The position numbers were made by a program, and so were the translations under genes. Below, piece by piece: positions 6,927 to 61,551 of a stretch of 64,000 bases of DNA (positions are counted from its first letter, which is position 1; each line of letters opens with the position of its first letter). The notes beneath the pieces were generated by a model. It saw nothing but the letters and a program-made list of their open reading frames with translations, was not told the origin of the DNA and did no database searches. This DNA is from Candidatus Altimarinota bacterium (GTDB lineage Bacteria > Patescibacteriota > Gracilibacteria > BD1-5 > UBA2023): the NCBI GenBank assembly GCA_043787675.1, contig JAYVUT010000010.1, positions 16,733 through 80,732 of the forward strand. The letters are read 5' to 3'.

Positions 6927-9900
6927 ATGTCTCATCTCTTCTCCAAAGCAGTTATCAACGATGCGACTCGCAATATCACTATCTCAGATCTCGAGCTCAA
7001 GATCGCTATACTCCAATGATGGCTCGATATGTATGATGCTGGATCGCTCCAGAAAAAGTCTGAGAAAGAATTTGAGGGAGTGTACAATGAGTCCTTATTT
7101 GGTACTATACTCGGATATACGAGTATAGTGAGTGGAGAGTATACGAGAGAAAAAGAACCACGCAATGAGTCCAATGGACAAAAACCAGATATTGGACTCG
7201 GATTCTATAGTCCTACGCTTGCTACGACTCAGGCAGTTGTAGAGTTAAAAGATGCTGCCACTTCACTTGATCGACCTCAACAACGAGCCGGCAATATGAC
7301 TCCTATACAACAAGCATTCAAATACAAACCCCTCTATAACTCCAAATGGGTGATTGTATCGAATTTTTTTGAGATCAGACTCTATACCGATACCTACAAG
7401 GACTATGAGTCCTTCACACTCCGAGAACTCGTCAATCCTGCAGATGACTATGTCTTATTTCGCCAGTTCTATGCCATATTCCATGCGAGTAGACTCACGA
7501 GTAGAAGTGGTGAGAGTGAGACTGAGTGACTCCTCGCTCGGGTGCGTATCGAAGAAGAGAAAATATCAAAAGAATTCTATAAGCAATACAAATCTCTGCG
7601 ACTCGAGCTCATGCGAGATATCTGGAAAAATAACCCCGAGAGTCAGAATGCATATGTCATAGAGAAATCTCAACGTATCATCGATCGTATCGTGTTCATC
7701 TGTTTCTGTGAGGATCGTGGACTCATTCCTCAGAATGAGCTCAGTTATCGAGTAGAGCAAGCCAAAAAATTTGGATTTGCTCCATGGGAGATGCTCAAAA
7801 AGTTTTTTATCTCGATAGACTCTGGAGATGTCAGTCTCGGTATCCCTGACGGGTATAATGGTGGATTGTTCCGTCCTGATGCGAGTATCGATGTACTACA
7901 TATCAGTGATAGTATCATAGAGCAGTTCGTTGCTCTCGGTCGCTATGACTTCTCTGAGGACGGTGGACAGCTCTCGGTAGAGATACTGGGTCATATATTC
8001 GAACAGTCGATCAGCGATATCGAGGAGATCAGATCCAAGATAGAGACGAGTGGAAAGGTCGATGAGGAGATCATCACAGACAAAAAAGTCTCAAAACGCA
8101 AAAAAGATGGTATATTCTATACGCCTGCCTATATCGTGAACTATATCGTCGACAATAGTCTCGGCAAGTATCTCGCAGGACATGAAGAGGCTCTCCAAGA
8201 CAAGTATGCACTCAAGTCAGATATCAACGAGAAAAACTATCGTAAACGAGAGATCGAGGCATATACGGAGTATCAGAAAATACTCCAGCAGGTAAAAGTC
8301 CTCGATCCAGCTTGTGGTTCAGGAGCGTTCCTCGTACGCGTATTCGACTGGCTCCTCGCAGAGAATCAGCGAGTAGCAAATATCCTCTACACTCAGTGAG
8401 ATCAGATACGGATCTGAGATAGTGAAGACTATTTCCGTGAGATCCTCCGTAACAATATATATGGAGTCGATCTCAACGAGGAATCTGTCGAGATCACCAA
8501 GCTCTCACTCTGGCTCAAGAGTGCTGTGAAAGGCAAAAAACTCGTCACGCTCGATAACAATATCAAGTGTGGAAACTCACTCATCGATGATCCTGCGGTT
8601 GCGGGCGATAAGGCATTCGACTGGAATATAGAGTTCGCAGATATCATGGGGAGTGGATGATTCGATGTGATAGTAGGAAATCCACCGTATGTACAATCTA
8701 GGAATATTAAATTATCAGTTGAGAGAAATTTTTTATGGAAAAAATATCGTACTGATACAAATCATTCTGATTTATATAGTTTTTTTATTGAACTTTCTCT
8801 AACTATTCTTAATACAAAATGAATTTTAAGTTTTATTATTCCAACTACTATCCTTGCAATTCCAAGTTTCAAATCTATCAGAGAATATATAGTATTAAAT
8901 TCTCATATACAAAGTATTGTAACTTTTAATAATATTAAAGTATTTGATGACGCTACAATCAATCCAATAATTATAAGTATTTGTAAAAATAAGATTCAAA
9001 AAGCCACTGACATCTATAGCTATAACCATGATATATTTTTCTTTAATAGAATTATACCAATAAATACCCTTTCATGAGATTATGCTATTGATTTAGATCA
9101 TAGCGAGAAGAAATCTATTATTATTGATAAAGTAAATACGCATGAATTACTAGATAGCATGTATAATCTTATTGGATGAATTAGAACAGGTGACGATGCT
9201 CGCTTTATTGGTGTTAATATAGATTCTTCAGATTCTAAAAAACTCATCAGATGAAGAGACTTCAGTAGATATCATTCAAGTTGGAATGGTGAATATATAT
9301 GGTATCGTCCAGATCTGATGAAAGAAAAACAGGCAGCTGCCCCAAAAGAATCAAAACTCTTTGAAGTTAATAAAAAAATTCTCATAAGAATGATAAGTGG
9401 TGAGAATTTTTCTGCTACACTCGATACACAAAAAATGTATTTATTACAGGATAATGTAATTTTGGAGAAAACACCAGATATGACACTCGAATACTTACTT
9501 GTACTCATCAATTCGAGAATAATTCAATTTCTTTTAACTACCTCAAATATTGCAGTGACACAATCTATGTTGTGAAAACTCAGGATTCCAAAAATCTCTC
9601 TTATAGAACAAAAACCGTTTATCGAACGAGCAGATAGGATGCTCGCACTGTATAGTGAGTTGCATGATAAGAGTAATAGTTTTCTCAAAAACATCTCTAC
9701 AAAATACCATATCGAGAAAGTCACACGCAAGCTCGAAAAGTGGTGGGAGCTTGATTTTGCTGATTTCATAAAAGAACTCAAAGCAAAAATATCACTCGAA
9801 GAACAAGAAGAGCTGATGTTATATTTTGACAAACGCAAGACAGAACTCCGTGATATCGTTGCTCGTATCGATGCAACAGATAAGGAGATTGATGAGATGG

Positions 9901-9965
9901 TATTCGAGTTGTATGGACTCTCGGAAGAGGATAAGAGAGTTGTTCTGGAATATAACAGCAAGTAA
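6927..9965 (+). CDS. Type IIG restriction-modification enzyme: fused PD-ExK endonuclease, N6-adenine methyltransferase and target-recognition domain
   Basis: The N-terminus has PDIGLGF..VELKD (a PD-(D/E)xK nuclease motif). The SAM motif is VLDPACGSGAFL and catalytic NPPY lies at 8679-8690. The C-terminus is an AT-rich TaqI-like specificity region with a coiled-coil tail. Five track fragments share a frame and are continuous across 9 TGA. Total length is 1012 aa. Confidence 0.85.
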
Positions 9966-18645: not shown

Positions 18646-21600
18646 TTATTTTACGGTGATCTTCTCATATTTGCCAGTAGCATGTATATATGGTTGGTAC
18701 ATATAATAAGCTGTCACAGGAGGGAGGAGATAGGTGCCGCTATATTCTGGGCGGATATAGTATGTATAGGTATAGGGTTTATCAGTTCTCCAGATGTAGT
18801 CTTGTGTTGCGAAGATCCTATCAAGCTGAGATTCGACGTGTGTCCAGCCATTCCAGTAGCCATACTCACTATTGGTATCTGTAGTACTCATACTCTCTGT
18901 CTTGAGTATTGAGCTAATCGGTCTCCATCCACCAGGTATATAGTCCTCGAGAGTCAGGTAGTACTTGTTTGTATTGCTGGGCTTTGGAGTCACAGTGATG
19001 CGAACTCTATAGAGCTCTCAATGGTGAAATATACTATCCGTGATAGGGGTAGCAGAGATGAATTGTCAGTTTTGATCGAGTCATCGTGATTCGTCAACTT
19101 TTTCAAATACTCGCGAAACAGTGAGTTCTGGATGGCTCACCCCCTGTACTGCAAAAATATCAATAGGCTCATCACGCATGCTGATCTCATAATAGACTAT
19201 CCCAGTCCCAGAAAGTCATGATATATCAAGTGTCTTACCTATGAGTGATCTACGAGTATCATAACTATATCTATGAGCTCATTTGCTCATACTGATTGGG
19301 ATCTTGAGTTTTCAGGTAGTTATCTGTAATTGAGATAGCGTATTCTGACCACCAGATAGAGATATCAGTGCCATGAGGAGTTGTATACGAGACTGAGTTG
19401 ATACATAGTAAGACTCGAGATCGACTCACTGGAGAAGATCACGGATAATAGTTGCTGCTATTGCCCGATCTCATAGTTGCACGAGGAGTCGAGCATATAT
19501 TGCCTGGTCAGCAGTATCATCCCAATACCAATAGCTTTCACTATGGCGAGAGCTCATTCGAGTTTTGAGATTTTTCTTCATGGTATTATCGAGTTTGTCT
19601 AGAGATGCGAGCCCAATACTATATATCAAGTAACCATGACGAGATAGCCGAGTGATATCTATAGAGTTCTCTACCTCTGGAGTTCTTGGATGCTTACCTT
19701 GTGCGAGAGTTGCGAATATCTCAGCCCTACTATCCATATCATCTGTGACTGGGAGACTACTGATATAATCTAGTCATCTCGATATATTATCATCTGGTAT
19801 AGTTATACCGAGCTTGCGGAACTCATAGAGTGACCTGATGACATATGGTGTTATATGATCATTTACTACAGTATCATTTTCCCAGTATTTCCATCCACCA
19901 TTCGCATCTTGCATTTTGAGTATTTTCTCAACTCCTGCTTCGAGATTTTTTCGGGCTTCTATTGTATCTATTTTTATACCGAGACTCGATCAGAGTGCTA
20001 GAGCTATAGCGTTGGGGAGAGTACTCGATATAGTCTGCTCTATACAGCCATATGGATAGGCAATCAGAGATGCTATGACTCTTTCAGGATTTTGTAGTGG
20101 ACTATCAGAAATACTGATAGTTACCTGTGAGTCTGGACTCGTATTATCTCAGATTGCTGGGATTGCTACTATCACTCCAGTAGCAGTCGATCCTGATACA
20201 CGAATCATATCAGTTATGATTGGTGGTTGAGCTATGTGGAGATTTTTAGATATACTATCGAGTATGATTCATTTTTTATCTCGTAGTGTGAGAGTATAGG
20301 GAATATCTCAATTCCATACTTTTCATACTACTATTTTATAGTCTTGTCATACGGCTTGTCCAGGACTCAGTATGAGTGTTTCTATTTTTTTCCATAATGA
20401 ACCACCAGTACCAATATTGAGTTCCAGGGTTGCCTCGCTGATCTGAGGTGTAGAGTTGAATACCGATGCAGTGATCGTAGTCATATCACCAGGATAGGCG
20501 AGTGATGATGCATGTGTCTCGAGTGTATAGTCTTGTCTGACTGATATAGTTTTCTCACTCACTGAAAATGTTGATGATTTTGTCTGTCATATTGCTATGA
20601 TGCGATAGTCGGTGACATTGTCCGGGAGAGCAAATGAAATATGAGCCTTACCGTTTTTATCTGAGAGAACCGATGGATTATAGTATGCAGTATTACGAAA
20701 TAGAGTCCGAGATGATATCTGTACTCCATCTCATCATTTATCTCCACTTCCACCATTTGATCCTTTTCGAGAGAGGTATCTATTGCGTTCGATACCGATA
20801 GCTGTGAGCGCTGTTTTCATTGTGAATTGGTACTTTTGGAAAAACTTCGGGATGATATCCAGATCGATATTGCCGAGAAGTCGTATCAGACTCTCATCGA
20901 TCACCATCACTTCTATCTCTCACTCGGTTCATTTGCCAGTAGTATCTGTGAGCAAGAGATCCATATTGACAGTATCACGGTTTTTATATATTTCTTTGTT
21001 TGGAGCTATATTTAGTTTTCATTTTTTATCTGAGAGATCCATAATAATCTCTCCATATCAGACTGCATATCCACGATCACTCCCTGTACTTCATCTTGGA
21101 AAAGCTACAACTCCTATATACACATTCGGATAAAAAGAATCATCTATCACATAGTCCCTGGTATAATTCGATCCTGTATATGTAATATATTCATGCTCGA
21201 GTACTCCTCATTTTTCCCGAGTTATATAGAGATGCCCTCAACTCGAGAAGGGCGTAGTGATGAGTACATGAGCTGTTTCACCACTATGGTATACAGTTCG
21301 TTCTGGTATAACACGCAGACTAGCATCTCGACTGACAAAGTTACCAGTAATGTAGATGAGCGTCTCACTGATAGACTCTATAGGTGGCATGATATCTGAT
21401 GGAGTGATCGGAGATATCTGCAATATATACTCTCAGGGTGTATATCACTTGGTAGCGAGGGTGAGATGATTTCCTGTGAGGGCTCACTCTGATACAATAG
21501 TATCTATTGTATGAGTTATTGGTGCTGATTCCCCTCGTAGCGTAGATATTTGTTCAGCAGTATATACTCGGTGGATGAGCTCATATTTGTATTTGTTGCT

Positions 21601-24486
21601 CATTGTTTGATCCCATTTTCCATGTTTTGGTCCTATAGTTGCCTCGAGTGATGTTCCAGGTTGTACCATCTTATTATCGAGAGTAGCCTCTACAGGGTTA
21701 TACCTATCATACATTTTGTGCTCTTGTCCGAGTGCGACGAGGAGACTCGCAGGAGTCACTATAGTTTCGCTAGTCAGGGGATCTATGAGCGTCACCTCAG
21801 CTGTGTATATATAGTCATCTGAGAATGATGAGAACTCGACATCTGTCCTGAATATTCCATATCCATCTGCATCTATTGATCCTGTACCTTCTGTATAGAA
21901 TTCTGGTGTCTGTTCGTAGTAGCATCACCAGAAACAGTCTCACCAGTCACTCATATTATAGTGAATACTCTTATAGATACGGTATGTGAATGGTGTGCTT
22001 TTTATCTGAGCACCATTATAATAATGAGCTTTTACATTTCACTCGATTGTAATATTGGATTTGTATGATTTATCATACCAAGGATTCGATGTGTCAGTAT
22101 TGTCTACCTCTCGTATATTTTGGATGATTCCATTTTTTACTTGTGGACTTGAGAGTTGTACCTCAGCAGTAAATGTGGGGTTTTTGAAAATTTCTACTTG
22201 AAAATTCGCATACCCATTGGTGATATAGATATTTGGATTTTTCACATCTTGTATATATATACTATATGATCCGAGAGATGCATCTTTTGCAAGGGTGAGT
22301 TCTGTAGCGATTGATCAGTAATTATTGCTTTTGATACGTTTTTTTGCTACTTCTTTTCATTCTTGATCTGATATAGTGATATCGAACTGTTCTCACTCCG
22401 GTATAGTGAGGGTTTTTTTATTTTCCCGGATGTAGGCCTTGATATATACCATTTCTCATGGGAGATAGAGTCTACGATCTGTGTGCATATAGACACTATA
22501 GAGAGATCTATTTTCCCAACCGTAGTCAGATTCTTTCATACCAAAATTCCACCCAGTGATACCATCATTCCAAGTACTCACTACATATCCGAAGTGTCCT
22601 CCTCATTTTGATACTGCGATGAATGAGCTATAGCGTCCCTCATAGTCACCCCATTCATTTGTGAGATTATAGGGATTATATTGACTTCCATCCGCCAGAG
22701 TTATTTGATCTTTCTGTAGTACCCCATCTCAGCTCGTTTTACCTATTGTGATACCAGTTCACCATGAGAGGGCGGAGAGGGGAGTATAGGCTATATCATA
22801 AGATTGTTTTCCTTGATTCCATTTCTGTGTATAGAGTTGAGATATATTCTCACGTAGGGTGATGCTTTGTTCACTGCGAGGTTCTCCAGTACGGATATCG
22901 GTTGCGAGCAACTGTATTTTTCCAGTGGTATCGAGTTTCATAGTAATATGAGTATCGACTACTGAGAATACTCTCGGAGATACCCACTTCTCTAGAGAGG
23001 AGATATCTCACTCTCGAGCAAAAGCCATCACATAGAGTCCTGGAGTGAGTCATTTCGGGTAGAATTCATTCACATCAAAATTGGATATCACAGATCCAGG
23101 TGACATAGTGATCGATTTTATTACACAATTTGATACATCATTCCCTCATAATAAACTGTAAACAACAGGTATATGTTCTTTATTTTTTAGTTCATTGAGT
23201 CGTTCTATTCTTGCATATCAATCAGATCATACCTGACAGAGCTTGATGTCATATTCATTCTTAATTCACTGACTTCTATAGAGCCTCGCGTCTATCGCAT
23301 CCCCATATTTGATGATAGTCTTGTTTCCTACGATTTTCATAGAGAGTGATGGGATTGCCTTGGCAGTCATATCGAGCACTGTGCTCGTTGTACGACCATA
23401 AATATCCTCAACTGTATCGAGAGATATATGATATGTTTCTCACTCTATGAAGCTGGCATATACAGTAGCTCTATTTGGTGAGAGCTCGAGATCTGATTCT
23501 CATATGGTGATATTGTTTGATATAGAGAGATGCTTCAGGAATGCTATCTTAGCTGATTGTCTATGTTGCATATATTCACTGCTATAGAGTACCCCAGTAT
23601 CTGTGAATATATCGGTTGTAAAATGAAACTCGATCCTACTCTGCATATCATATTCGGGTGATAGTATATCAGTAATGATACCCGTCGCTGTGAATGTATC
23701 GAGTGGAGCAAATAGGTATGACTGTATATCTCCACCGAGTCCTACTATAATACAACTATCACTCGGATATTCACTGAGTTCGAGTGAATAGGTTCATATT
23801 TTTTTCTGACTGACAGTATGATTTTCTATAGTTCTTGTTTTTACTCGAGTCCATAGTCAACTCCCCCATCCACTGAGTCCACCACAACTATGGTCAGCCC
23901 CCATTTTTTTTATATACCATCTGACATCAGATGTATCGAGACCTGTATATCCATAGGTAGTCAATTCATAACTCATATCTCGTGGGAGTCCTATTTGCCT
24001 GATCTCTATATTGTGCGGGTCATCAGAATATGTAGTTGTCATATCTCGTGGAAATTTCCATCCGATTTTTTTTTGACTATTATATATGCTTGCAGATATT
24101 GTGATGGTATCGCCTTTTATCCAATTCGCTGGCAGTACTTCGATATAGGTTCCATCCACTACAATTTTTCCATCTCATATTGATTCCCCTATACTATTAC
24201 CATCAGCCATAGGAATTCATCCTTCTGTACTGATTCTCCAGGGTTTTCCATTTTTACTGGTAGCAGCTATCAGGGCATCTCTATTGATCGCAGTTTCTTG
24301 GTTCATATTTCAGAATTGTATCCATGGTTTTGCGAGTGCTACTCTGAGAGTATTGTTGTGCTGAGACTCTTGTCCGATAAACGACGTCACGAGAGTATCA
24401 GTTGCTAGGCTATATGCATGATATCCGAGTATGCTCACTGAGAGGGTTGCTAATATGATGAGCAAATATTGTGAGATTTTTGACAT
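18646..24486 (-). CDS. Bacterial alpha-2-macroglobulin family protein (1946 aa) with an intact thioester motif
   Basis: The thioester motif AYPYGCIEQT has CIEQ at 20035-20046 (complement), and MG/A2M-type domains flank it. Eight track fragments share one frame. I checked every in-frame triplet from 18646 to 24486 and found no TAA or TAG, with about 50 TGA. The N-terminus is a signal-anchor, MSKISQYLLIILATLSVSILG. Confidence 0.85.
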
Positions 24487-34397: not shown

Positions 34398-36281
34398 CTA
34401 TTGTTGTATCTTCCATTTTTGCATCTCATCTGCCGATATATTTCCAAAAAAATCTCCACGATAATATACTCACTCACTTGGCCGACTCTTTGGGCTTTCA
34501 TATTTTTTGCTATAGAGCAGTTCTCTTCTCAGACAAGGAGTATCGAGACATATGGGGATCTGATGGAGTCAGTTTGGTACTGCAGATGTATTTTGCTGTA
34601 TATATTTATTTGTTATCATATACTCAGCAATCTTGTGCCAGATTGGTCCTGCTCCACTCACACCTGACACATCTCCCATCGATGATCCATCAGTATTGCC
34701 AACCCAGACCCCGATAATTGCATCTTTTGAGTACGATATCGTCCAATTATCTCGGAAATCTGTGCTGGTTCCAGTTTTTACTGGTAGGGGTATACTCGTA
34801 CCAAGTATACTCGATATACCAAAAGTACGCGATCGATTTCTTGGATCAGAGAGTATTTTAGAAATTTGCCATTTACTAGGATTGCTCATATCAAGGAGTG
34901 AGCTGTAGGAGTCTACTATATTCTCCATTGTGAGTTCGACAGTTCCTAGCGATATACCATACCCGTAGTATCCGACATCATGATCGAGTGAGAGTCCCAT
35001 ACTACGGAGAAAGTCGTATACTCTAGAAATAGAGAGAGTATCCGTGAGCCTGACTGTTGCTGAGTTGAGTGAGTTGCCGAGTGCTTCTCTGAGTTTGATT
35101 GGGCCATATGACTTGGGATTATAGTTTTCAGGGACAAAATATTTTCCTGTTGTACTCGTTTCATAACTTGTTTTTTCATCGAGGAGATAGTCCTCAGTAT
35201 CAGCTCATTTCTCGAGTGCGAGGAGATATATGAATGGTTTCAGTAGTGATCCAACAGAACGACTACGAGTAATCATATCGATTTGTTCATCCGTATTCAT
35301 ATTTGCTATATATGTGAGGATCGTATTTGTCCGAGGATCAATGATATATATCTGAGCATTTGTCACATTTTTTCATGAGAGAGAATCAAGTACTCATCTT
35401 GCTATAAGGAGTGACTCATTCATCAGACGTGAGTCTATAGTGAGAGTGAGGCTGATATTGTTTGATTCACATAGATTTTCTGGTATCTCGATTGTCCATT
35501 TTTTCATAATATTTTTATACCCACTACAGTATAATTTTATTTCATTATCAACACGATTTGTTATCATCGGGAATATATCAATTCATGGTTTTTGTACTTT
35601 TATTCTGAGATGTGTTTGCGTTCATTTTTTTCCTATCTTTTCAGTGACCCTCGTTCTATATGCGAGTACTGCCCCTTCATTTGACTCTCATATATTAGGG
35701 TATTTGAGTCTGGTGATAGTATCGAGTATTGTATCCTCATCAGGATTATTACCTATCACTGTGGCTATACCGTAGAGTCCATTTCCCATGTACACTGTAG
35801 AGAGATATTTACGCAGTATTTCGTCTTTGCTGTATCTGTGTTCGAGGATCATGGCTCCGATAGTTTCTCTGATTTTTTGGAGTATAGTCCGAGGTTCACT
35901 ATTATAGTATGCGTTCTTGATATACTGTTCTGTTATCGTCGATCCACCACGTACGACTCCACCTGCCGATATATTCTGATAGATACTCGCGATCTTCGCA
36001 CTCAGATTGACTCAACTATGCTCATAGAATCTCGCGTCTTCCACTCATACTATATTCTTTACGAGATCTGTATCGAGTGACCCAGTATAGAGGAGTGAGT
36101 AGCCATCAGATCTTCACTTATCTGTGATTATCCCTCATAGGTGATCCCTGAGGATGATATGTCCATATTGAGTGTTGGGATTTTTGTATACAGTATTGCA
36201 GATGTCCACGACAAATAACACGACAAGTATAAAAAAGGCAAAAGAGATGAGAAGCAGGATTTTTTTCACGAGAAGTATCAT
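34398..36281 (-). CDS. Class A penicillin-binding protein (GT51 transglycosylase plus transpeptidase)
   Basis: The TG motifs are VEDARFYEHSGV and RGGSTITEQY. The TP motifs are SLLK (SxxK), SLN (SxN) and KTGTS (KTG). The N-terminus has a TM helix. The single 627-aa frame was verified codon by codon, including the A7 tract near 35625. Confidence 0.85.
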
Positions 36282-39547: not shown

Positions 39548-39799
39548 ATGCCAATCCCACTTCCCCATTCCCACTGGCGTCATTACAAATCTACAGGATG
39601 AACTGATTATACGTATGAGGTGATCGGTATTGCAAAACACTCTGAAACTGGAGAAGAAATGGTGATATATAAACCTCTCTATGAGATACCACTTGATTCA
39701 TGGGCCTATGGGTATGAATTCGTAATTCGCCCACTCTCTATCTGGTATGATATCATTGAATACGGAGGGAAGAGTATTCAGAGATTTACTCAAATATAA
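39548..39799 (+). CDS. DUF1653-family small protein
   Basis: WRHYKSTGGTDYTYEVIGIAKHSETGEEMVIYKPLY..FVIRPLSIW..RFTQI matches the DUF1653 pattern. One TGA is in frame. Confidence 0.7.
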
Positions 39800-39813
39800 A
39801 TAAGATATTTTCC

Positions 39814-41112
39814 ATGTACTCCTTTATCTGAGTTTTAATACTCATTTTCCCTGTATTTCACTCACCGTCACTTGTGAGTCGTATTGAGTCTCCTATTCAG
39901 GATATTATCTATACGAATTCTGGATACAGTTCTGATTATGTAGAGGTATCTATTGGTACTCCTATAATTTTTTGGAATCAATCTAATCTTCCTATGTGGA
40001 CAGCCTCAGATCCACATCCGGTTCATACGGATTTTTCTCTATTTGATGCCCGTAGGTCTTATGCGCCAGGAACTTTTTATATCTATACATTCCAGAAAAC
40101 AGGTACATATGCGTATCATAATCACGAGAAATCCAATCATCGTGGAATTATTCGAGTGATTGATCCGACTAGGCCATTTGTTCCGATTGATAAAACTCAA
40201 GAAAATCTCAAAAAAACTCGTGATAAGTTTCTCGCCATGCTCGACCCCCATGATGATACGAGTATTTCTCATATGATCAGAACTCTCGAATCAGATACCA
40301 AGCTCTCTCGTAATTGTCATGATATGTCTCATGATTTGGGACATCGTGCATATGAACTCTATGGCTTTTCTCGTGCGATGACGTGGTCCAATGGAAATAT
40401 AGAGAATACCTCAGTAGATGATGTGTGTGCTGGGTGATATATGCATGGTATTCTTGAAGAATTATTCCTACATCATCCAGAATTACAAGAAAATCCTGAG
40501 TCGGTATGTTCAGGAATTCCGAGCAAGCATCAGGGAAGTTGTTATCATGGGGTGGGTCATGGTATTATGTTCTCTACCAAGAGAGACGTTGAGAAATCAC
40601 TCATTGCATGTCGTACTATGTCTAATAGCACATTTGTATATCGTTGTTTTGAATGAGTGTGGATGGAAATGTTCTGGTGAGATACGGGTCATGCTGGTGC
40701 TGATTCTCTTGGTTGGAGTACTGATGATCCATTTGCACGCTGTAAACTTGCCAAAGCTGATGAGAAGCCTACTTGTTTTCTCTATGCCCATCTCGGATAT
40801 TTGAGGTCTCACCTTTGAGATTTTCCAGGAGTTATCCGGTTCTGTACTAATTCTGATCTCTCGAGTTATGATACGAGATTCTGTCTCAAGTGAATCTGAA
40901 TCACCATGATGAAACACTTCACCAGTAATCATCTGGAAAAATCAGAATCACTTGTCAAAAAACTGAGTGAATCACAGAAATATGCATACTATGGATGAAT
41001 ACATAGTTATGCACTACTTTCTTCTGTTAAAAAAACTGATTTGGACATATTTTGTGGGCATTTAAGTCAAGATAGTACTGTTTGTAGAAAAGCACTTTTA
41101 GAGGCAAAATAG
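39814..41112 (+). CDS. Secreted or anchored protein with an N-terminal cupredoxin-like domain and a Cys/His-rich C-terminal domain
   Basis: The signal-like start is MYSFIGVLILIFPVF. VEVSIGTPIIFWNQSN..ASDPHPVH..GTYAYHNHEKSNHRGIIRV resembles the cupredoxin_1 fold. Downstream are repeated C..H..GHG motifs. Track fragments 39874..40437 and 40441..40656 share its frame (10 TGA). Confidence 0.5.
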
Positions 41113-49827: not shown

Positions 49828-50841
49828 ATGCTACAGAGACTATATATTATATTCTTATTATTTCTCATATCTGGCTGTACGAGCCCATATCATGAGCATT
49901 TTTGGCGAGAAAATATCGAACTCACTTCCCCGAAAAAAACTGTATCAGGAGAGCTATTCGCAAGTGATGGACAACTCGAAACACTTCCCAATACATATAC
50001 TCAGAAAGATCTCATCTCTCGTATTGATAAGGCACATAACCGTATATGGATAGAGATATATACTTGGACAGATGCAGCAAAACTCACGGATCCGATTATC
50101 CGAGCCCGACAAAGATGAGTTGATATCCGAGTTGTTCTGGAGGGGAATGTATTCGGCACTCCTCGCATCAATATGCCAGTTGCCAAAAAACTCAAAGAGG
50201 CTGGTATTTGAGTTATATATGCTGATAACCATCGATATTCTTTTACTCATGCAAAATTCTGGATTATTGATGATACGTATTCGATCTCGACAGGGAACTG
50301 GACCGCTTCATTTTATACCAAAAATCGTGAATACATCTATACAAGTACCGATATAGCGACTATGAATTTTCTCGAGAATATATTCATCGCTGACTCAACC
50401 CATATGGGCTACAAAGATATTTCTCAGATACCGAGTCATATAGTGATATCTCCGCTCAATGCTCGTATAGAGCTTGAGTGACTTATCTTATCTGCTCATG
50501 AGAGCCTACTTCTCTATGTCCAGACCCTCGATGATGATCATATCATAGAACTCATCGGACAACTGATTGCATCAGGTAAAAAAGTCGAAATATGTACTGC
50601 AGATAATGATTCCAACCGTATTCGTCAGACAGAATTCCCAAGTTGGCACTGGCGAATTATCCGCAAGCCATACCTCCATGCCAAAGTGATTATTGTCGAT
50701 AATGCTCGTATATTTATCGGAAGTCATAATCTCACTACCAATGCCATCGAAAATAATAGAGAAATGGGTATCATACTCTCTCAGAGAAGCGATATTGTAG
50801 AGCGTATACAGGCTGACTTCATATGAGATGGCTGTAGATAG
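49828..50841 (+). CDS. Phospholipase D superfamily lipoprotein (two HKD motifs; cardiolipin-synthase/nuclease-like)
   Basis: It has the lipobox LFLISGC and the motifs HAKFWIIDD..ISTGN and HAKVIIVDN..GSHNLT. The frame was checked (4 TGA). Confidence 0.8.
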
Positions 50842-50885
50842 TGTGATTTTTTGCTTTTTCACATGAGATGTGCTACTATCATAGT

Positions 50886-52814
50886 ATGAATATTTGGAAA
50901 AACAGTCTCATCACCCTTCTTTCACTTGGATTTGCTTCATTTTTTGTGTATGCATCATTCGTATTCGGTATGCCCAAAAACCAAAACAAAGATATACTCA
51001 CAGATCACCAGATACAAAAATCAGTTGCAAGTATTAGTACAGATAGCAAATGACTCCAGAGTCTTGAATATAGTTCATATGAAACTGGTTCTAGTGCTTC
51101 GGGCATATTATCACTCGATCTTGGCCGTCTATCGACAGCTTTTGTTATGAATAATTCTGATCTTTCTATTGTATTCTCAGGAACTCATGATCTTATTTTC
51201 CATGGATTTCAAGGTATTGTATCTCTTTATGATCCATTTATCTCATATACTCTTCATCCGAGTGATGCGAGTTATCGAGTGAGCCAGATAACCAATGGGA
51301 GTTATTATCTCTCATCTGAAAGCGATGGTACCATCTCTATTTACTCAATTGATGTTGTAGCAGAGCTCGCATTCTATGACCAATGAGAGCAAATGACAAA
51401 TATGATATTGTTTCCTGGTATGTATATCAGATTCGATCCAAAAGCAAATAAGGATCTCAAATGAGCTGATTTGTTTCGTATCATGCTCGTACTCGGAGAT
51501 GAACATAGTGATAAGCGTACTGGTTTAGAGTTTGTTAATCCAAGAGTTGACGGTGGTAAGTGAGAAGATATATTTTTTATGTATCAACTTCCAACTCCGA
51601 CACGCCCACTATTTCAGATGCTCCATCTCTTGTTCCGTGATCGTATCAAGCAAGTTGAGGATCTCAAAAGCTATGCAAGTAGTCGATGATATATTACTGA
51701 GGATATCAACACACTTGTCTATAATCCCAGTAAAAAAAATCACTATCTTCTCGATGATCTCAGATCAGTACTCTCTCGGGCAGTACAGTCTCAGATGGTG
51801 GCATCGGATTTTCGTACAAAGATTGATAAGATTCATATAGCATCTACTCAACTGGTTCAGGGTAATAGTGTCCAAAAAATGCTCGAAGGATTTCTCACTG
51901 ATGCTCGATTCGCTATATATGGTAATGTGAGCAATAGTCAATTTGATGCTATTTATACTGAGACTGCCAACATTCTTGGAATTATTCCTGGTACTGGTAA
52001 GGGTAAATTTTTTCAATACCTCTCTGACATCTACTCTCGTAATGTTGTATTGCAACGTAAAGATCCTACATTCTCAGGTATCGATACCTATACACCAACA
52101 GCGGACGGACTTAAGGAAACTCTTGAGAATAGTAATATAGAATCCAAAGATTATTTTGATATAGCACTCTATACATATCAACTTTTGCAAAAGACCCAAG
52201 ATAATCAAATGTTCACCTATGAGTCTATCACATCTCGAGCTACGTATGAGCTCATAGATACATTGTTCTGAGCTACTACCAAATATATTGAGTGACTCGC
52301 TACCCCAGAGCTCCAGAAAGCTGCATATCAGACACTTGTTATTCAGTTTTATGCACCGATTGCTGCAACGCTCAATCGCTCTCTCTATAGTACTTACGGG
52401 TCATATTCTGATGGTAAGATATATATCGATCGTCAGCATCTCGATGGTGACTTTGTCAAGTTCGATGTGAAGATGCGAGATAATCTAGAATCTACATATG
52501 AGCTGATGTTAGCATCATATGAACGTGTGGCACCACTCTATGATGTCGGGGAACAAAGATATACACTAATTGCCCTCAGAGATTCTATTACCCGAATAGG
52601 TTGATTCCTTGATATGGTCAGAGAGGGGAAGTATAGAGAATACCAGCTTGCTCCATATGCTGGTATCGATATTTGAGGTATTCCAACCCCAACTATTGGA
52701 TCTGATGGGCATATCGAAGTATTCGGAACTGTTGTACCTATACAACTTGGATCAGGTTCAACTATACCATCTTCCTCTGGATCTATAGTTATACCTCCAG
52801 TAGTGGTACAATAG
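50886..52814 (+). CDS. Large membrane-anchored or secreted hypothetical protein (642 aa)
   Basis: The N-terminal anchor is MNIWKNSLITLLSLGFASFFVYA. Three track fragments share a frame and are continuous across 9 TGA to TAG 52812-52814. No motif was recognised. Confidence 0.5.
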
Positions 52815-55534: not shown

Positions 55535-56074
55535 ATGTTCAAGCTTATTTTTGCTCTCTCTCTGATATGTGCCCTTGCATCCTGTACTGCAGGTAGGTAT
55601 GAGGCTGTACATATACTATGAAAATTCCCTCAAGATAGCGAAATCCGAGTCCGTGGTATGTGAGTCAGGCTCCCAGATCATAGCATCCTCACGAGTGCCC
55701 ATGTTGTCCGCGATGATAGTATGATCTATGATATAGACTGAGAGAGATATCAGGCAGTCTACCGAGATATCCCATGAGATCGAGCTATCATAGCGAGAGA
55801 TACCACTCATCAGAATCAACCTCAAATCCCTAAACTCGCAACAGTCCAACTCTGAGGTCCTATATATACTGAGGTGAGTAGATCTGGTGTGATAGTGAGA
55901 ATAGCTGGTAAGGTCGTAGATCCTGCCGCATCGGTGCTCGGCTATGACTCCCTATGACGAGTTGTATCCCTCTCGGGGATAGTACGCATCGATGTAGATC
56001 TGTCTCCATGAGATAGTGGGGCCCCCATATATACATCTTTATGAGAACTCGTAGATGTAGTCCATGTGAGATAA
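55535..56074 (+). CDS. Small trypsin-like (S1/S1B) serine protease lipoprotein
   Basis: It has the lipobox ALASC. The catalytic His is in LTSAHVV, and the Ser is in PGDSGAPI (the G before DSG is TGA). It is only 179 aa. Confidence 0.65.
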
Positions 56075-56119: not shown

Positions 56120-58330
56120 CTATTTTTTTGGAGGAGGTGTAGTTGGATTTTGTGTTGTAGATTCTGTATTTGTAGATCCTCCTGATTCATTATTTGCTTG
56201 TTCTGTGGTAGTTTTTTGAGCTCAACCAGTTGATGCAGTGGGGTGAATTTGTTTATATAAATACTGCCCCTCGTGGCTGTCTTCAAAATATTTCTTTGAA
56301 ATCATTCATTTTTCATATGCTGCCTTTATTTTCGGTAGATCACTTGTTATATCTTTTACTCACAATGCTACCATATTACTTTTTAGATCTGCTTCATTGC
56401 TCCATGTTATTTTTCAGTCTGCTCCCTTTTTTCAATATTTCTCTAGAATTGTATTTAATCATTCCGCAGTTTTATCCATTTTATTTCATTTGCTTTCTTG
56501 ACTGAGTTGAGTACGTAGATTGCCTACCATAGTATCTGTAGGAATATTAGTTGTTCGAATAGCCTCTATAGCTTTTACTGTTTCTTTTCTTGCGGCTGCC
56601 TCTAATCCAAGAAGTTGTCCAAGTGGGCTCTTGGCGTCTTCGTTGGTTCTATGGTCTTTATAGCCTTGTTCTACTTTCCCTATACCTTTTTCCATACCAC
56701 TCATACTCATACCGAGTCCAGGAATAGGAGTGTACTTCGGTATGCTCTTGGCGAGTGATCACACTTGACTACCGATCTTCTCAAATGGCTCAACAGCCAT
56801 TGCCACTGCTTTGCTCACATTCTTGGCTGCCATGAATGCCATCCATATGAATACGAGAGCTATGATATCGATAATGAGAGTACCAAATATACCACCAGCA
56901 GAGTTGAGTACACTCATAGTTCCACTCGCTCATGCAGCTTCCGTTGCTGGATCTATAGCTGCTCCAGCTTTTCATTCGAATGTTGTTTGGACACCACCGA
57001 ATTTGATGATATTGAGAGTTTTTGCTTCAGGTTCACCGAATTTGACTATTTTCCTTGTTATAGAGTTTTCACTATTACCAGCTATACTGATGATTTTACA
57101 TCATTCTCCCTTTATCATATCAGAGGTACATGGTGTTGTTGTAGCACCAGCCTTATCACTTCCTACTGCATTTATGAGTATGAGTCAAAATGATAGTGCA
57201 AGTCCGACGATCGCAGGGACGAAGCAGAGTCCGACGAACTCCTTGATCGTGAATGTATCCTTGTCTCCTCACATCATCGCAGATCCAGCAACAAACTGGA
57301 AAGTAAATAGTGGAGAGAATATCGCATAGACCCATAGCTTGATCGCTCTTACGAGGAGCATCGCAACGAGTGCCAGAGTGAGGAGACCGAATACGACAAA
57401 CATGATAGCCGCAACTATTCACTGATGTACTATCCCGAGCCCTGTAGATATTATATCTAGCCCTTGAGGGAGATTTTTTACTTCCTGAAACCTGAATACT
57501 GAATATGCATATATCATCATATAGCCATACATTCCAGCAGATTTATTGATGACATCTATAGGAGCTATACAATTTCCACCTTCTTTTTGTCCATCACATA
57601 TTGTTTTACTAGTATCAAGGCTACTATTTTTTTTGAATGAGTTATCATTTATAGTTATCTCTCTTGGTATACTTGGCGTACTCATCCAACTTTTCCCATC
57701 TTTATCTAGATTTGCCATAGTCTCAGCTGGAATAGTGATGACAGATGCAGTCACGACACTCGCGAGCGATACTGTCCACTGGACGAACCACCAGGTAAAT
57801 GGTACCATCAGGATACCGAGTGCCAGTTTTGGGAGCATTACTTTGTAGGAAAATGACTCTTTCCCGAACATCGTCCCGAGTGCGATGAGGATCAGTAGGA
57901 TCGCATAGACAAAATATACTATATTGGATACTGTCACCCAGAGTGAGTACATAGGAGTACGTAGACCAAATAAATCACCACTCGTCCAATCTGGAGACAT
58001 CAGCCATCATGCGAACATGATAGCAGGGGAGACAATAGCTGTGATGATTCCGAGGATAATATTGAGTCCGTCTATGAGACTATTCCACATCTTGAGTTGG
58101 TCTGTTGAAGTTGCTTTCGCATCTTTTGTCTCATAGGCAGATGCATCTAGTCCATTGATCATACCATCACTACTACTGGGTCCACTACCTGCAGCATATG
58201 TGTGCTGTTCAGTATATGATATACTCACTATTTTATCATTCGATCATATCATTTCGATATGTATATTCCCAAAAAACCCACTAAGAGCGACAAGTGATAG
58301 GAGCGAATATGTGAGAATGCGTTTGAACAT
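56120..58330 (-). CDS. Large polytopic membrane protein (736 aa) with a hydrophilic C-terminal tail; VirB6/TrbL-like topology, function unknown
   Basis: Track fragments 58007..58228, 57419..58000 and 56486..56710 share one frame. It has an N-terminal signal, at least 6 TM segments and a Trp-rich loop (PFTWWFVQW). The roughly 200-aa charged tail ends TTQNPTTPPPKK. It ends at TAG 56120-56122. Confidence 0.6.
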
Positions 58331-58435: not shown

Positions 58436-59281
58436 CTATTGGAGAGTCTTGGATATATTTGCTTCTGCCTCTGTCTGTATCAATTTCAGTGTCCTGATGA
58501 TATCTGTTCCAGAGTCAGGGATGACTACAGTCGATCTCTTGATGAGGGCATCTCGATTATTCGAGAGAGCATCGATCAATTGCAGATTGCGTATCTGGAG
58601 AGCAGTATAACTTTGCTTGAATCTACCCAGATATATGAGATAGACGCGGGCTCTGGTATCCATATGTTTTGCCGTGATATAGCTATCGATCGCTCCATCG
58701 ACACCACTATAGTCATACGCGTCGTAGGAGGATTGCATGATATTTTTGGCACTACTCGTCTCACTCGTCGATCTATCGATAATCCCCTGGAGGTCTCAGA
58801 TCTGCTCTCCTATTACAGACAGTCGCTCGAGAGTGCGATTGTAGTATGACTTTAGCAGTGATATATGTTCCCCGAGTGCTACTGCTCTATCTGTCGCACT
58901 ATCGAGGAGATGTACTATATCTGTAGAGAGGATATTCGCGTAGCTCGATATCCCCAGCATATTGCTCCCTATGAGTCGTTGTTGTCATATATTCGGGGAT
59001 GAGAGCACCTCAGCGATAGAGATAATATTATTTGATAAATCTACACCTGCATATTTTATTTGTGTTTCTTTTTGTCCGAGAGAGAGACTCATTGCCGTTG
59101 CAATATTGCCCATATATGTAATATCTGCTTGTGAAAATGAGAGATCGTTGGCTCCAGCACTCGTCTTGAGTCCGAGCATCGGTCATATATATCCCCATGA
59201 GAGATGGAGTATGAGTGTGAAGAATAGCGTCAGAATGAGTGTGTTTCGTATGAAGTCCTTGACTTCGCTCGTGAAAACCAT
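58436..59281 (-). CDS. Membrane-anchored hypothetical protein (281 aa), first gene of the operon
   Basis: The N-terminal TM is NTLILTLFFTLILHLSW, followed by a helical soluble domain. Track fragments 58985..59179 and 58436..58738 share its frame, and the gaps were checked (3 TGA). It ends at TAG 58436-58438. Confidence 0.5.
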
Positions 59282-59340: not shown

Positions 59341-61551
59341 ATGCGTTATTTTATCATTGTTGTTACCCTGTGTCTCCTATTGATAGGGACTCTCATACAC
59401 CGCACACCGACATATGATATGACTATAGAGAGATCCCAGATGACCCCCATATGAGATATGGCATACCGTACCACTACACAAAAACCAAAGAATATCTGGT
59501 ATATAGGGATCAAAAATCCTAAATCCTCTGATGCGAATATATGTGTAGATTGGATATTTGCTCATGCAACAAAAACCGAATGTATCGATCATGATGGGAC
59601 AAGGAGTGGGGATGAAATATTCTCATTCCCAGTTCTTGTGGATGCGACCGATAGTGCATCATTGCATATTGTATGATCACAAATTGACCCCAAGGATATC
59701 ACCGTATATTCGATGGATACTCGTGCCGCTGGTTCTCGACTTGGATTCGCACTTCCTGGTGCTCGAGCCGAGAATGGTATCATATCTCGAGCTGAGTGGT
59801 GAGCAGATGAAACGATGCGATATACAGATAGTCCATACTGGCAGAATCGCTACCCTATATATCTCCAGTATGTCCAGTCCCCGAAAACTCAGGCACAACT
59901 CGATGCCATCAATATAGAGAACAAAAAAGTCGACTACCTCATCAAAAATGGATGAGCTGCTACAGAAGTAGTCTCACTCAAAAGAACTGAAAATGGACAT
60001 CCACTGGTATGGCCTATCGAGAATACTCGGCAAGTATCTCGTATTGTCATCCATCACACTGCCCAGAGTCTCGATAATACCAAGACAGATGCTGAGATGA
60101 TACGTGGTATCTATGCGTATCATACGCTCTCGAGAGAGTGGGGAGATATTGGATATAACTATCTCATAGCTCAACGGGGGCTCATATATGAGGGGAGGGC
60201 TGGTGGTGACTATGTAGTGGCATCACACGCTGCCTACAACAATATGGGAACTGTCGGTATATCGATCCTCGGTGACTATAACCGTGATCATCTCAATCGT
60301 GACCAGATATCTGGTATCGCCCAAGCTATATCGATGATGGCGAGCAAATATGGGATCACGCTCTCTGATAGCAAAAAGTGAGTTAGAAAGTGCAGTATAG
60401 CTAGTTGTGAGCTGTTTGATATCGTAACTACCAAGTCACTCATGGGTCATCAGGATATCGGACACACTGATTGTCCCGGATCAGATACCTATCCACGCAT
60501 CTCTGAGTGGATATCTCAACTTGATCGATCATATAGCCCAGTATACAATAGTATTTGAGGTACTATAGAGCCAAAACTTCCTGGTACAGAAATGAATATG
60601 TCATTGCGAGTCGCAGCACCTATAGCTACATATCCATCTACACTATTTGCTCCGAGTATAGCAACAGTGAAATATATATGACCCAAGTTCAGAGTCAGGC
60701 TCTCGTATCCAGATAGTACGAGTATCACTCTCACAACAGCAGATAGCAAGATCGGTAAGCTCATACTCGATCAGACAAAAATACCAATGCAAGTATCTCA
60801 AAAAGTACAAGTATGAATAGTATGAAATACTCAATTATCAGTACAAATATGACAAAAAATATATACTGGATCAGTAATGAGACTATCTCATAGTATAGTG
60901 CGTATCGACTCATGGGATCGTATTCCTGACTGGGACAAGAGTGGTAAGTACAATGACAATCTATTCCGTGATACCATCAGAGTCATAGCTCAAAATGGCA
61001 AACTTGTAGTCATCAATGATCTCCCTATAGAATGGTATCTCAAGGGTATGTGAGAAGTATCAAATAGTGATCTCAGTGAGAAAATCAAGACGATCATAGT
61101 ATCTGCTCGCTCATATGCAAGATGGTATATGTCACCTCAAAATCGTAAATTCCCAGGTGAATCCTATGATGGGTCGGATGATCCGGACGTATTCCAAAAG
61201 TATCTCGGATACTCGTATGAACTGAGATCTCCTATAGTAGCGAAGTTCGTCGACGCGACTCGTGGACAAGTTATCACATATTCTGGTCAACTTATCAAGC
61301 CTTGGTACCACTCATCTTCTGATGGTCGTACACTCTCTGCACTCGAGTATTGTCAAAAAAATGGATCATCGAATTGTGTCGATACTCCATACCTCCAATC
61401 CGTCATTGACCCAGGTTCAGTATGACGTACTAGATCTGGACATGGGGTCGGAATCTCTGGAATCGGAGCTACATATTGGGCTCAGGCAGGATGGGATTAT
61501 CCGCGAATTATACAATACTACCTCAAGTGAGTTGAAATATCTAAAAAATAG
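59341..61551 (+). CDS. Fusion of an N-acetylmuramoyl-L-alanine amidase (Amidase_2/PGRP fold) with a SpoIID/LytB-type lytic transglycosylase domain
   Basis: It has a signal-anchor. The amidase motifs are RIVIHHTAQS, WGDIGYNYLIAQRG and GHQDIGHTDCPG. The SpoIID-like C-terminus carries EWYLKGMGEVS, VSARSYARWY, SDDPDVFQKYLGY, WYHSSSDGRT and GHGVGISG. The frame was checked line by line (about 16 TGA). The protein is 736 aa. Confidence 0.8.

Follow-up and report, generated by a model that had tools for sequence, protein, structure and literature searches.

Can a stretch of DNA that falls apart into short open reading frames (ORFs) under the standard genetic code encode a single secreted polypeptide carrying both an amidase and a SpoIID-type lytic transglycosylase and, if so, on which cell wall would such a protein act? 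This question is raised by nucleotides 59341 to 61551 of a 64,000 nucleotide stretch (referred to here as the window, to which all coordinates refer) from contig JAYVUT010000010.1 of a Candidatus Altimarinota bacterium of the Gracilibacteria, in which a preliminary description, made from the sequence alone, had proposed such a fusion. According to our results, the region contains an intact gene whose product is a catalytically complete amidase joined through a flexible linker to a compact SpoIID domain with its catalytic Glu, in a fixed order. The reading developed below, to which we give about an even chance, is that this exported or tethered protein is a two-step autolysin acting on the cell's own wall, first as an amidase and then as a SpoIID-like lytic transglycosylase, and that two neighbouring membrane proteins probably position or control it in Gracilibacteria.

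Genetic code and integrity of the gene

When genes were called with translation table 11, the region 59341-61551 fragmented into short ORFs. Its in-frame translation comprised 737 codons with 13 internal stops, all of them TGA, the terminal TAG being the sole other stop. Across the window, ORFs of 150 aa or more added up to 19.6 kb with TGA as a stop and to 115 kb, about six times as much, once it was not considered one, and no comparable gain in coverage was obtained when TAA or TAG was dropped; table 11 was consequently rejected as the wrong code for this window. The UGA columns were aligned with standard-code homologues from Peregrinibacteria and Abawacabacteria, plus correctly translated Gracilibacteria entries, and these homologues carried Gly at columns 154, 504, 695 and 730 and G or A at column 571, with Trp never found at the conserved columns. 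UGA is thus read as Gly (code 25) in this window, and its reading as Trp (code 4) was rejected on the same columns. Since UGA aligned with Gly in standard-code relatives, the gene corresponds to an intact 736-codon ORF, and the finding of Gracilibacteria homologues together with UGA as Gly agreed with the recoded, candidate phyla radiation (CPR) origin that the preliminary description had supposed.

Under the standard code, the 13 TGA triplets interrupting the frame could be taken as the mark of a stop-ridden pseudogene, or of two separate genes, and not of a real one. This reading is refuted and its probability is practically nil, because the interruptions were exclusively TGA, the rest of the window behaved alike, the TGA triplets aligned with Gly, and the homologues were full-length with invariant catalytic residues. 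One of them, P0001, was collinear with the fusion at 83% identity and 98% coverage, and the existence of full-length collinear homologues indicated that there is neither a frameshift nor a split gene; the undetected stop or frameshift that the preliminary description had feared between the two halves was therefore absent. The start ATG at 59341 (MRYF and then a hydrophobic stretch of 16 residues) agreed with the N-termini of the homologues.

Many public entries of the fusion family, including P0121 and P0232 (both of them translations of this contig) as well as P0006, P0065, P0071 and P0077, have been translated with UGA as Trp. The W content of such translations was 3-7%, as compared with about 1.5%, with spurious W at Gly positions, where these translations are therefore wrong. 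No second copy of either the amidase half or the SpoIID half was found within the window, and a scan for a UGA-reading tRNA detected no tRNA in it. The gene sequence was present in sediment metagenomes, and a search for RNA evidence returned only DNA runs, from these metagenomes, and no RNA run.

Two peptidoglycan-directed domains on one chain

The amidase was recognised by Pfam Amidase_2 (PF01510) with 55.2 bits against a cutoff of 26 (E 1.2e-14), aa 229-380 covering positions 2-130 of the 131 of the profile. A sequence search of the PDB matched this part to PGRP3 (4z8i, E 6e-16), other PGRPs and T7-lysozyme-type amidases, and Foldseek against the PDB gave PGRP-LB, PGRP-SA, LysC, T7 lysozyme and endolysin amidases (prob 1.0; target template modelling score, TMt, 0.65-0.78), dozens of PGRP and endolysin amidases being listed below the SpoIID structures. 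The two motifs quoted in the preliminary description were located at aa 235-241 (IVIHHTA) and aa 369-380 (GHQDIGHTDCPG). H238, H239, Y272, H370, T376 and C378 were invariant in 120/120 homologues; the zinc ligands H238, H370 and C378, as well as Y272 and T376, aligned with PGRP motifs, and both the eight-residue distance from H370 to C378 and the position of T376 two residues before the Cys were the same as in PGRP-LB (H152/T158/C160), whose mutant entries 7nt0 and 7nsy (Y78F, C160S) were among the structure and sequence matches. On these alignments the domain is a bona fide member of Amidase_2 and a predicted zinc N-acetylmuramoyl-L-alanine amidase with its catalytic set complete, as the preliminary description had proposed.

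The C-terminal part matched Pfam SpoIID (PF08486) over aa 552-647 with 36.5 bits (cutoff 23) and NCBIfam TIGR02669 (SpoIID_LytB) with 103.7 (cutoff 83.3). Bacillus anthracis SpoIID (4rwr) was matched in the PDB sequence search (E 5.5e-12), and the structures ranked at the top by Foldseek were the SpoIID crystal structures 5i1t (E 1.1e-11) and 4rwr, with TMt values of 0.50-0.55. E572 fell opposite the Glu of 'SEM' in 4rwr, and this catalytic residue, numbered E88 in B. subtilis SpoIID and E101 in its Clostridioides difficile counterpart, is required for activity (PMC6221140, PMC6635528). R590 was found at Glu+18, and the invariance of E572 and R590, seen in 115/115 homologues bearing the domain, held down to about 30% identity. 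D690 and H701 were invariant in 114/114, and many residues of the groove region, among them Y609, D610, D613, Q619, Y621 and E627, did not vary either, so that the loss of catalytic residues contemplated in the preliminary description was observed in neither domain. We take R106, K203 and D210 to be important in B. subtilis SpoIID, R106 being at Glu+18 like R590.

An AlphaFold2 (AF2) model was made for P0001, the homologue with 83% identity, whose numbering is offset by 13 residues. Its mean predicted local distance difference test (pLDDT) value was 89.3 and six parts were resolved (Table 1). The hydrophobic stretch FIIVVTLCLLLIGTLI at the N-terminus is the sole hydrophobic segment of the protein; the homologues had similar N-termini, some of them with clear AxA-type sites (P0062, SYA/SS; P0111, LQA/AS). 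This suggests either a Sec signal peptide or a signal anchor that is not cleaved, the protein being predicted to be exported or membrane-tethered, and together with the uninterrupted frame under code 25 it sustained the claim of a single secreted polypeptide. The description of the N-terminal half as the amidase was only partly right, because the domain shares that half with a beta-sandwich, and the SpoIID core has another beta-domain in front of it. The N-terminal beta-sandwich (pLDDT mostly >85 in P0001) gave no Pfam match, was recognised by no profile and showed just a weak Foldseek match to the collagen-binding beta-sandwich 1nqj (E 3e-3); it is dispensable, being missing from some members of the family. 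The second beta-domain (pLDDT >90) had no family match either, and its 'IRIxLSYP' consensus was kept in the homologues. The spacer between the two catalytic domains varied from 161 to 696 aa among homologues, the linker of Peregrinibacteria being longer by several hundred residues, with Ig-like PF16158 and sometimes CARDB domains. A family-conserved two-helix insertion was also seen in the amidase, at aa ~165-205 (59833-59955), after the 'ISRAEWGADE' strand and ahead of the catalytic core; in division amidases a regulatory helix occludes the active site.

Table 1. Location of the fused gene, its domains and residues, and the two adjacent genes in the window
Feature	Position	Strand	Remarks
Fused amidase–SpoIID gene	59341..61551	+	736 codons + TAG stop; 13 in-frame UGA = Gly (code 25)
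Predicted N-terminal export signal, aa 1-20	59341..59400	+	MR + 16-residue hydrophobic stretch FIIVVTLCLLLIGTLI
All-beta, sandwich-like accessory domain, aa ~22-137	59404..59751	+	AF2 P0001 strands 5-124
Amidase_2 / PGRP / T7-lysozyme-type domain, aa ~145-400	59773..60540	+	PF01510, 4z8i, Foldseek, AF2
Predicted amidase catalytic residues	H238 60052-60054, Y272 60154-60156, H370 60448-60450, T376 60466-60468, C378 60472-60474	+	Invariant
Disordered inter-domain linker, aa ~426-439	60616..60657	+	pLDDT <50 at P0001 413-426
Second beta-domain before the SpoIID core, aa ~449-522 (starts FRVRLSYPD)	60685..60906	+	AF2 P0001 436-509
Compact SpoIID/LytB-type domain, aa ~541-736	60961..61548	+	PF08486, TIGR02669, 4rwr, 5i1t
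SpoIID catalytic Glu E572 and R590	E572 61054-61056, R590 61108-61110	+	Invariant in 115/115 domain-bearing homologues
Shortened junction YLQSVIDPGSVGRTRSGHGVGIS	61390..61458	+	16 residues vs ~87 in B. anthracis SpoIID
281-aa orphan, divergent neighbour	58436..59281	-	N-terminal transmembrane helix + long coiled-coil hairpin; 14 syntenic loci
736-aa polytopic membrane orphan, second neighbour	56120..58330	-	Hydrophilic C-terminal tail; 10 syntenic loci

The assignment of the C-terminal half to SpoIID/LytB stood as far as the family is concerned, but it is not a full domain, about 80 residues being missing throughout the family. The 4rwr alignment fell into two segments (chain 52-196 and 283-318), whereas the TIGR02669 match comprised only profile positions 2-125 and the tail, the full domain having about 270 profile positions. 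The 16-residue spacing between YLxSV and GHGVG was the norm across the fusion family, and the Foldseek score of 0.50-0.55, which spans 276 columns of a 285-residue target, fits the deletion of about 80 residues. On these alignments, the SpoIID part of the fusion is a compact sub-type within the SpoIID/LytB family.

Several points weigh against a two-step autolysin at this level. About 80 canonical residues are absent between 'YLQSV' ('YLxSV') and 'GHGVG', and the sporulation SpoIID equivalog TIGR02870 was failed, with 65.4 bits against a cutoff of 234.75. The position that presumably corresponds to K203 is variable here (Q686 in 70/114), and the region of what we take to be D210 is remodelled, with the invariant D690 nearby. 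The inter-domain geometry of the AF2 model is unreliable as well (predicted template modelling score, pTM, 0.58). With these residues missing and the equivalog score so low, the compact domain might lack lytic transglycosylase activity; as its Glu, Arg and groove residues are invariant, that activity is likely, though not assured.

The deletion, the score far under the SpoIID equivalog cutoff, the similarity to SpoIID of just 0.50-0.55 and the name 'peptidoglycan hydrolase-like amidase' given to two homologues (JGI) would all be consistent with a protein that is only an amidase, whose compact SpoIID/LytB-like domain serves as a cis-acting glycan-binding or activating module and not as an enzyme. 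There is background for such a role, as LytB enhances the LytC amidase, COG2385 is named an amidase-enhancer domain, and SpoIID stimulates SpoIIP. However, E572 and R590 did not vary in any of the 115 domain-bearing homologues and D690, H701 and the groove-region residues were likewise invariant, a pattern of Glu, Arg and groove that is expected of an active site rather than of a binding module, and we consider this alternative rather unlikely.

Distribution and proposed action on the wall

The first homologue search retrieved 566 proteins, the top ~112 with both Pfam domains, and the sources named among them were all Gracilibacteria, Peregrinibacteria/Peribacteraceae or Abawacabacteria. When GTDB was scanned with each species represented by one genome, we obtained 580 relatives and examined the best 80 loci, all of which belonged to Gracilibacteria, Peribacteria, Peregrinibacteria, 'Altimarinota' or Patescibacteria metagenome-assembled genomes; both halves were matched in nearly all of these best 80, which places the fusion in at least 80 species genomes. 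A hidden Markov model search over 1.84 billion cluster representatives detected at least 150 distinct clusters at 50% identity, the 150th still scoring 489 bits with both halves matched. Among the matches listed, every homologue search was filled by members of the Gracilibacteria/Peregrinibacteria lineage, and the domain order, amidase followed by SpoIID, was constant in the family. The fusion is therefore a standard, widespread core gene of this lineage and not the unusual architecture suggested by the preliminary description; so many genomes and clusters with a constant domain order are what is expected of a housekeeping gene. GenBank already labels several homologues 'N-acetylmuramoyl-L-alanine amidase', besides the two JGI names mentioned above. 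We found no paper mentioning Gracilibacteria together with SpoIID, and in the Vampirococcus genome paper, which reports two secreted 'peptidoglycan hydrolases', the amidase–SpoIID architecture is not described; as far as the literature shows, the fusion is present in the databases under a partial name and undescribed in the literature searched.

Five proteins of 433-459 aa (P0113-P0117) contained the amidase only; they correspond to the N-terminal region of P0050, a fusion of 761 aa, and stop just beyond the amidase. Incomplete gene calls, the end of a contig or a true split of the gene could each account for them. Outside cellular genomes, only the amidase domain had counterparts: a tblastn search against 50,697 phage records and a scan of IMG/VR contigs gave amidase-domain similarity without the fusion architecture, and the fold search of the predicted viral structures of BFVD gave amidase-only matches. 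No plasmid-like, phage or viral context of the fusion was found, and a phage or endolysin origin was rejected.

In the mechanism that we propose, the amidase would first strip the stem peptides from N-acetylmuramic acid (MurNAc), and the tethered SpoIID-like domain would then act on the denuded glycan, cutting it by lytic transglycosylation with the release of anhydro-disaccharides. SpoIID enzymes cleave only amidase-denuded glycans (PMC6221140, PMC6635528), in agreement with the order of events assumed in the preliminary description. The sequence of SpoIIP and then SpoIID, or of AmiA and then SpoIID in Waddlia, would be built into one chain, and since both activities would reside in the same chain the cutting of the glycan would be limited to the sites at which the amidase had just been at work. 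That the stripping would also be processive and self-sufficient, as supposed in the preliminary description, is an overstatement. The role would be the remodelling of the cell's own wall, that is, septum splitting, daughter-cell separation and turnover, in an organism with a small genome and few hydrolases. We favour the cell's own wall because of the lineage-wide conservation, the fixed architecture, the housekeeping-like neighbours and the lack of mobile or viral context. A class A penicillin-binding protein (Transgly and Transpeptidase) is encoded in the window (34398-36281, - strand), which indicates that the organism makes its own peptidoglycan, and in related organisms the wall is of the Gram-positive type and peptidoglycan synthesis is complete (PMC8080830, PMC11452946). 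Furthermore, in a bacterium that does not sporulate, AmiA has a SpoIID homologue as its partner at the division septum (PMC6635528).

The habits of the lineage also count against an autolysin, as its relatives are epibiotic predators or parasites, host walls having been proposed as the target of the peptidoglycan hydrolases that they secrete (PMC8080830), and the N-terminal beta-sandwich could be a targeting module. The fusion might accordingly be, as the preliminary description had considered in second place, an enzyme that breaches the wall of a host or prey, released or presented at the epibiont-host interface, perhaps with the two membrane neighbours. Epibiotic predators are found among the Absconditabacteria/Gracilibacteria, with peptidoglycan hydrolases proposed to act on host walls (PMC8080830, PMC11452946); the predicted export signal and the accessory beta-sandwich, as a possible binding module, would suit this role, a secreted lipoprotein resembling phospholipase D (PLD) is encoded nearby in the window, and the 281-aa neighbour has a weak, non-significant fold likeness to components of ClyA-type pore-forming toxins (best E 0.03-0.1). 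These Foldseek matches, however, do not reach significance and are such as any long helical hairpin would give, and many members do without the N-terminal module. Weapons tend to be patchy and quick to evolve, whereas the fusion is conserved lineage-wide with a fixed architecture, including many Peregrinibacteria/Peribacteria in which the neighbours look like housekeeping genes, so that a weapon is less favoured. Besides, the cell also needs to split its own wall, and the window showed no further candidate hydrolase. Taking both sides together, we hold a host-directed enzyme to be unlikely and retain the own-wall autolysin.

The autolysin can be compared with several known systems. In the SpoIID, SpoIIM and SpoIIP (DMP) machinery of Bacillus and Clostridioides, as proposed for the fusion, an amidase (SpoIIP) denudes the glycan and a SpoIID-type lytic transglycosylase then cuts it (PMC6221140). 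We also counted as likenesses the N-terminal membrane tethers of the DMP enzymes with their polytopic partner SpoIIM, and the catalytic SpoIID Glu, kept in the fusion as E572. In contrast, the fusion is one polypeptide, its amidase is of the Amidase_2/PGRP type and not of the SpoIIP type, its SpoIID part is about 80 residues shorter and fails the equivalog, and the lineage is not known to sporulate. Neither a SpoIIM homologue nor a SpoIIP-type partner was found in the window, the neighbours of the fusion being orphans. Because the amidase family differs, the equivalog was failed and the window has no SpoIIM, the fusion is not a member of DMP.

SpoIID and AmiA of Waddlia chondrophila provide the best functional precedent for a division-related role on the cell's own wall. 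There, a SpoIID-domain enzyme of a non-sporulating, genome-reduced bacterium acts on denuded glycans only and has been implicated in division (PMC6635528), but the two proteins are separate and the enzyme relies on D48 and not on the canonical Glu. The organism of the fusion, on the other hand, is full-walled, and its relatives have a Gram-positive-type wall.

Staphylococcal Atl/AtlE is one exported precursor with an N-terminal amidase of the Amidase_2 fold and a glucosaminidase, and functions in daughter-cell separation; like the fusion, it has an amidase and a glycan-cleaving domain on one chain, showing that such coupling is an established design. Its GH73 glucosaminidase has no need for denuded strands, the precursor is cleaved into two enzymes and it bears GW repeats, whereas the glycan-cleaving module of the fusion would need the product of its own amidase. 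In the B. subtilis lytABC operon, LytB, a SpoIID/LytB-domain protein, is paired with the wall amidase LytC during vegetative growth. LytC belongs to Amidase_3, LytB has been described as an enhancer rather than an enzyme and, unlike in the fusion, the proteins are separate.

Membrane protein neighbours and other genes of the window

The 281-aa gene and the fusion are divergent, with start codons 59 bp apart, and the 736-aa gene comes next (Table 1). By tblastn under code 25, the 281-aa and the 736-aa genes were found beside the fusion in the same arrangement in 14 and 10 Gracilibacteria loci, respectively, and the consecutive locus tags HOO68_00115/HOO68_00120 and HHAS10_08730/08740 backed this synteny. 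The pair persisted down to about 38% identity of the fusion, as the remaining neighbours drifted, and the adjacent membrane proteins noted in the preliminary description are thus a conserved pair. Both families are restricted to the lineage, with 111 proteins for the 281-aa and 105 for the 736-aa orphan. The N-terminal 31 residues of the 281-aa family, including the transmembrane helix, are nearly invariant, and the helix is predicted, in a confident model, to be followed by a long antiparallel coiled-coil hairpin; Foldseek found nothing significant for it (best E 0.03), only generic helical hairpins including ClyA-type toxin components. Members of the 736-aa family share Cys pairs within a large loop, and their C-terminal tail is rich in Lys, Glu and Thr. 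Neither neighbour had a Pfam or NCBIfam match and, for the 736-aa family, PDB profile searches were also empty, except that 1 of its 27 members matched TrbL_4 (VirB6-type) below threshold (E 3e-4). Identification of the two proteins by Pfam, NCBIfam, PDB profiles and AF2 plus Foldseek thus gave only sub-threshold or non-significant matches.

A small trypsin-like lipoprotein (Trypsin_2, just below cutoff) is encoded at 55535-56074 (+) and adjoins the membrane pair in four related loci (L001, L003, L004 and L033). Downstream of the fusion, the window contains dcd, dut and folA; the promoter scan around the fusion gave nothing above chance, and the terminator scan found none between the fusion and dcd. 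In the standard-code Peregrinibacteria/Peribacteria loci, the recurrent neighbours were, by sequence, TsaB-, RsmI-, thioredoxin-, RNase H- and LeuRS-like. Prepilin-like genes ('GFTLVEVLIA') were also observed within 6 kb downstream in ~12-15 standard-code loci (among L021-L080).

The polytopic neighbour raises the possibility that the fusion is a VirB1-like space-maker, opening the cell's own wall for a pilus or an apparatus resembling a type IV secretion system (T4SS) of which the 736-aa protein would be part. Two-domain hydrolases, with a lytic transglycosylase and a peptidase, serve monoderm T4SSs (PMC12102498). TraG of pIP501 and PrgK, as proposed for the fusion, combine a lytic transglycosylase and a peptide-bond hydrolase in one membrane-anchored protein beside polytopic membrane components (PMC12102498), but their domains are SLT and CHAP, and no T4SS ATPase context was found for the fusion. 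VirB6 homologues have been reported as undetectable in Gracilibacteria (PMC12102498), which suggests extreme divergence, and the TrbL_4 match and the prepilin-like genes downstream of the fusion in ~12-15 Peregrinibacteria loci would agree with such an apparatus. Nevertheless, no VirB4- or VirD4-like or other T4SS gene was present among the scanned part of the window genes or the recurrent neighbours, the TrbL_4 match was a single sub-threshold one of a hydrophobic protein whose NCBIfam and PDB profile searches were empty, and the pilin linkage concerns a minority of loci, which makes this explanation very improbable.

In Gracilibacteria, the 281-aa and 736-aa proteins probably position or control the autolysin; by analogy with SpoIIM, which does so for D and P, they may tether or gate it. 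A bolder proposal, which we regard as speculative and quite improbable, is that the fusion and the bitopic and polytopic orphans would constitute a Gracilibacteria-specific three-protein envelope machine, a DMP analogue with D and P fused and M replaced, in which the breakdown of the wall would be coupled with the movement of the membrane, either where epibiont and host are in contact or at division.

Other genes of the window deserve mention. A 1946-aa bacterial alpha-2-macroglobulin (18646-24486, -) with MG2, A2M, bait region, TED and bMG10 and a thioester-like 'GCIEQ' is encoded in this small CPR genome, as well as a 1012-aa single-chain type IIG/IIL restriction-modification enzyme (6927-9965, +) with Eco57I, N6_Mtase, MmeI_Mtase and TaqI_C matches. 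A lipoprotein-like protein with a LISGC lipobox and two PLD/HKD domains is located at 49828-50841 (+); in Vampirococcus, a related predator, a secreted phospholipase has been proposed as a host-membrane factor. Two proteins have an N-terminal hydrophobic segment, one of 648 aa (50868-52814, +) without Pfam or NCBIfam matches, and a Cys/His-rich one of 470 aa (39700-41112, +) without a Pfam match.

The general picture of peptidoglycan hydrolysis is unchanged by these results, since bifunctional autolysins and the cooperation of amidases with SpoIID are both established. SpoIID-type enzymes are unusual in that they act only on peptide-stripped glycan and therefore always need an amidase partner, and a lineage-wide covalent fusion of the two offers a clean system for testing substrate hand-off; being about 80 residues short, its SpoIID part also suits the question of the minimal SpoIID catalytic core. 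For the biology of the CPR, the fusion is probably the principal wall-remodelling enzyme of Gracilibacteria and Peregrinibacteria, accompanied by two candidate orphan regulators, and the three-protein machine, if true, would offer a first way into the question of how a wall is opened or reshaped by these recoded epibionts.

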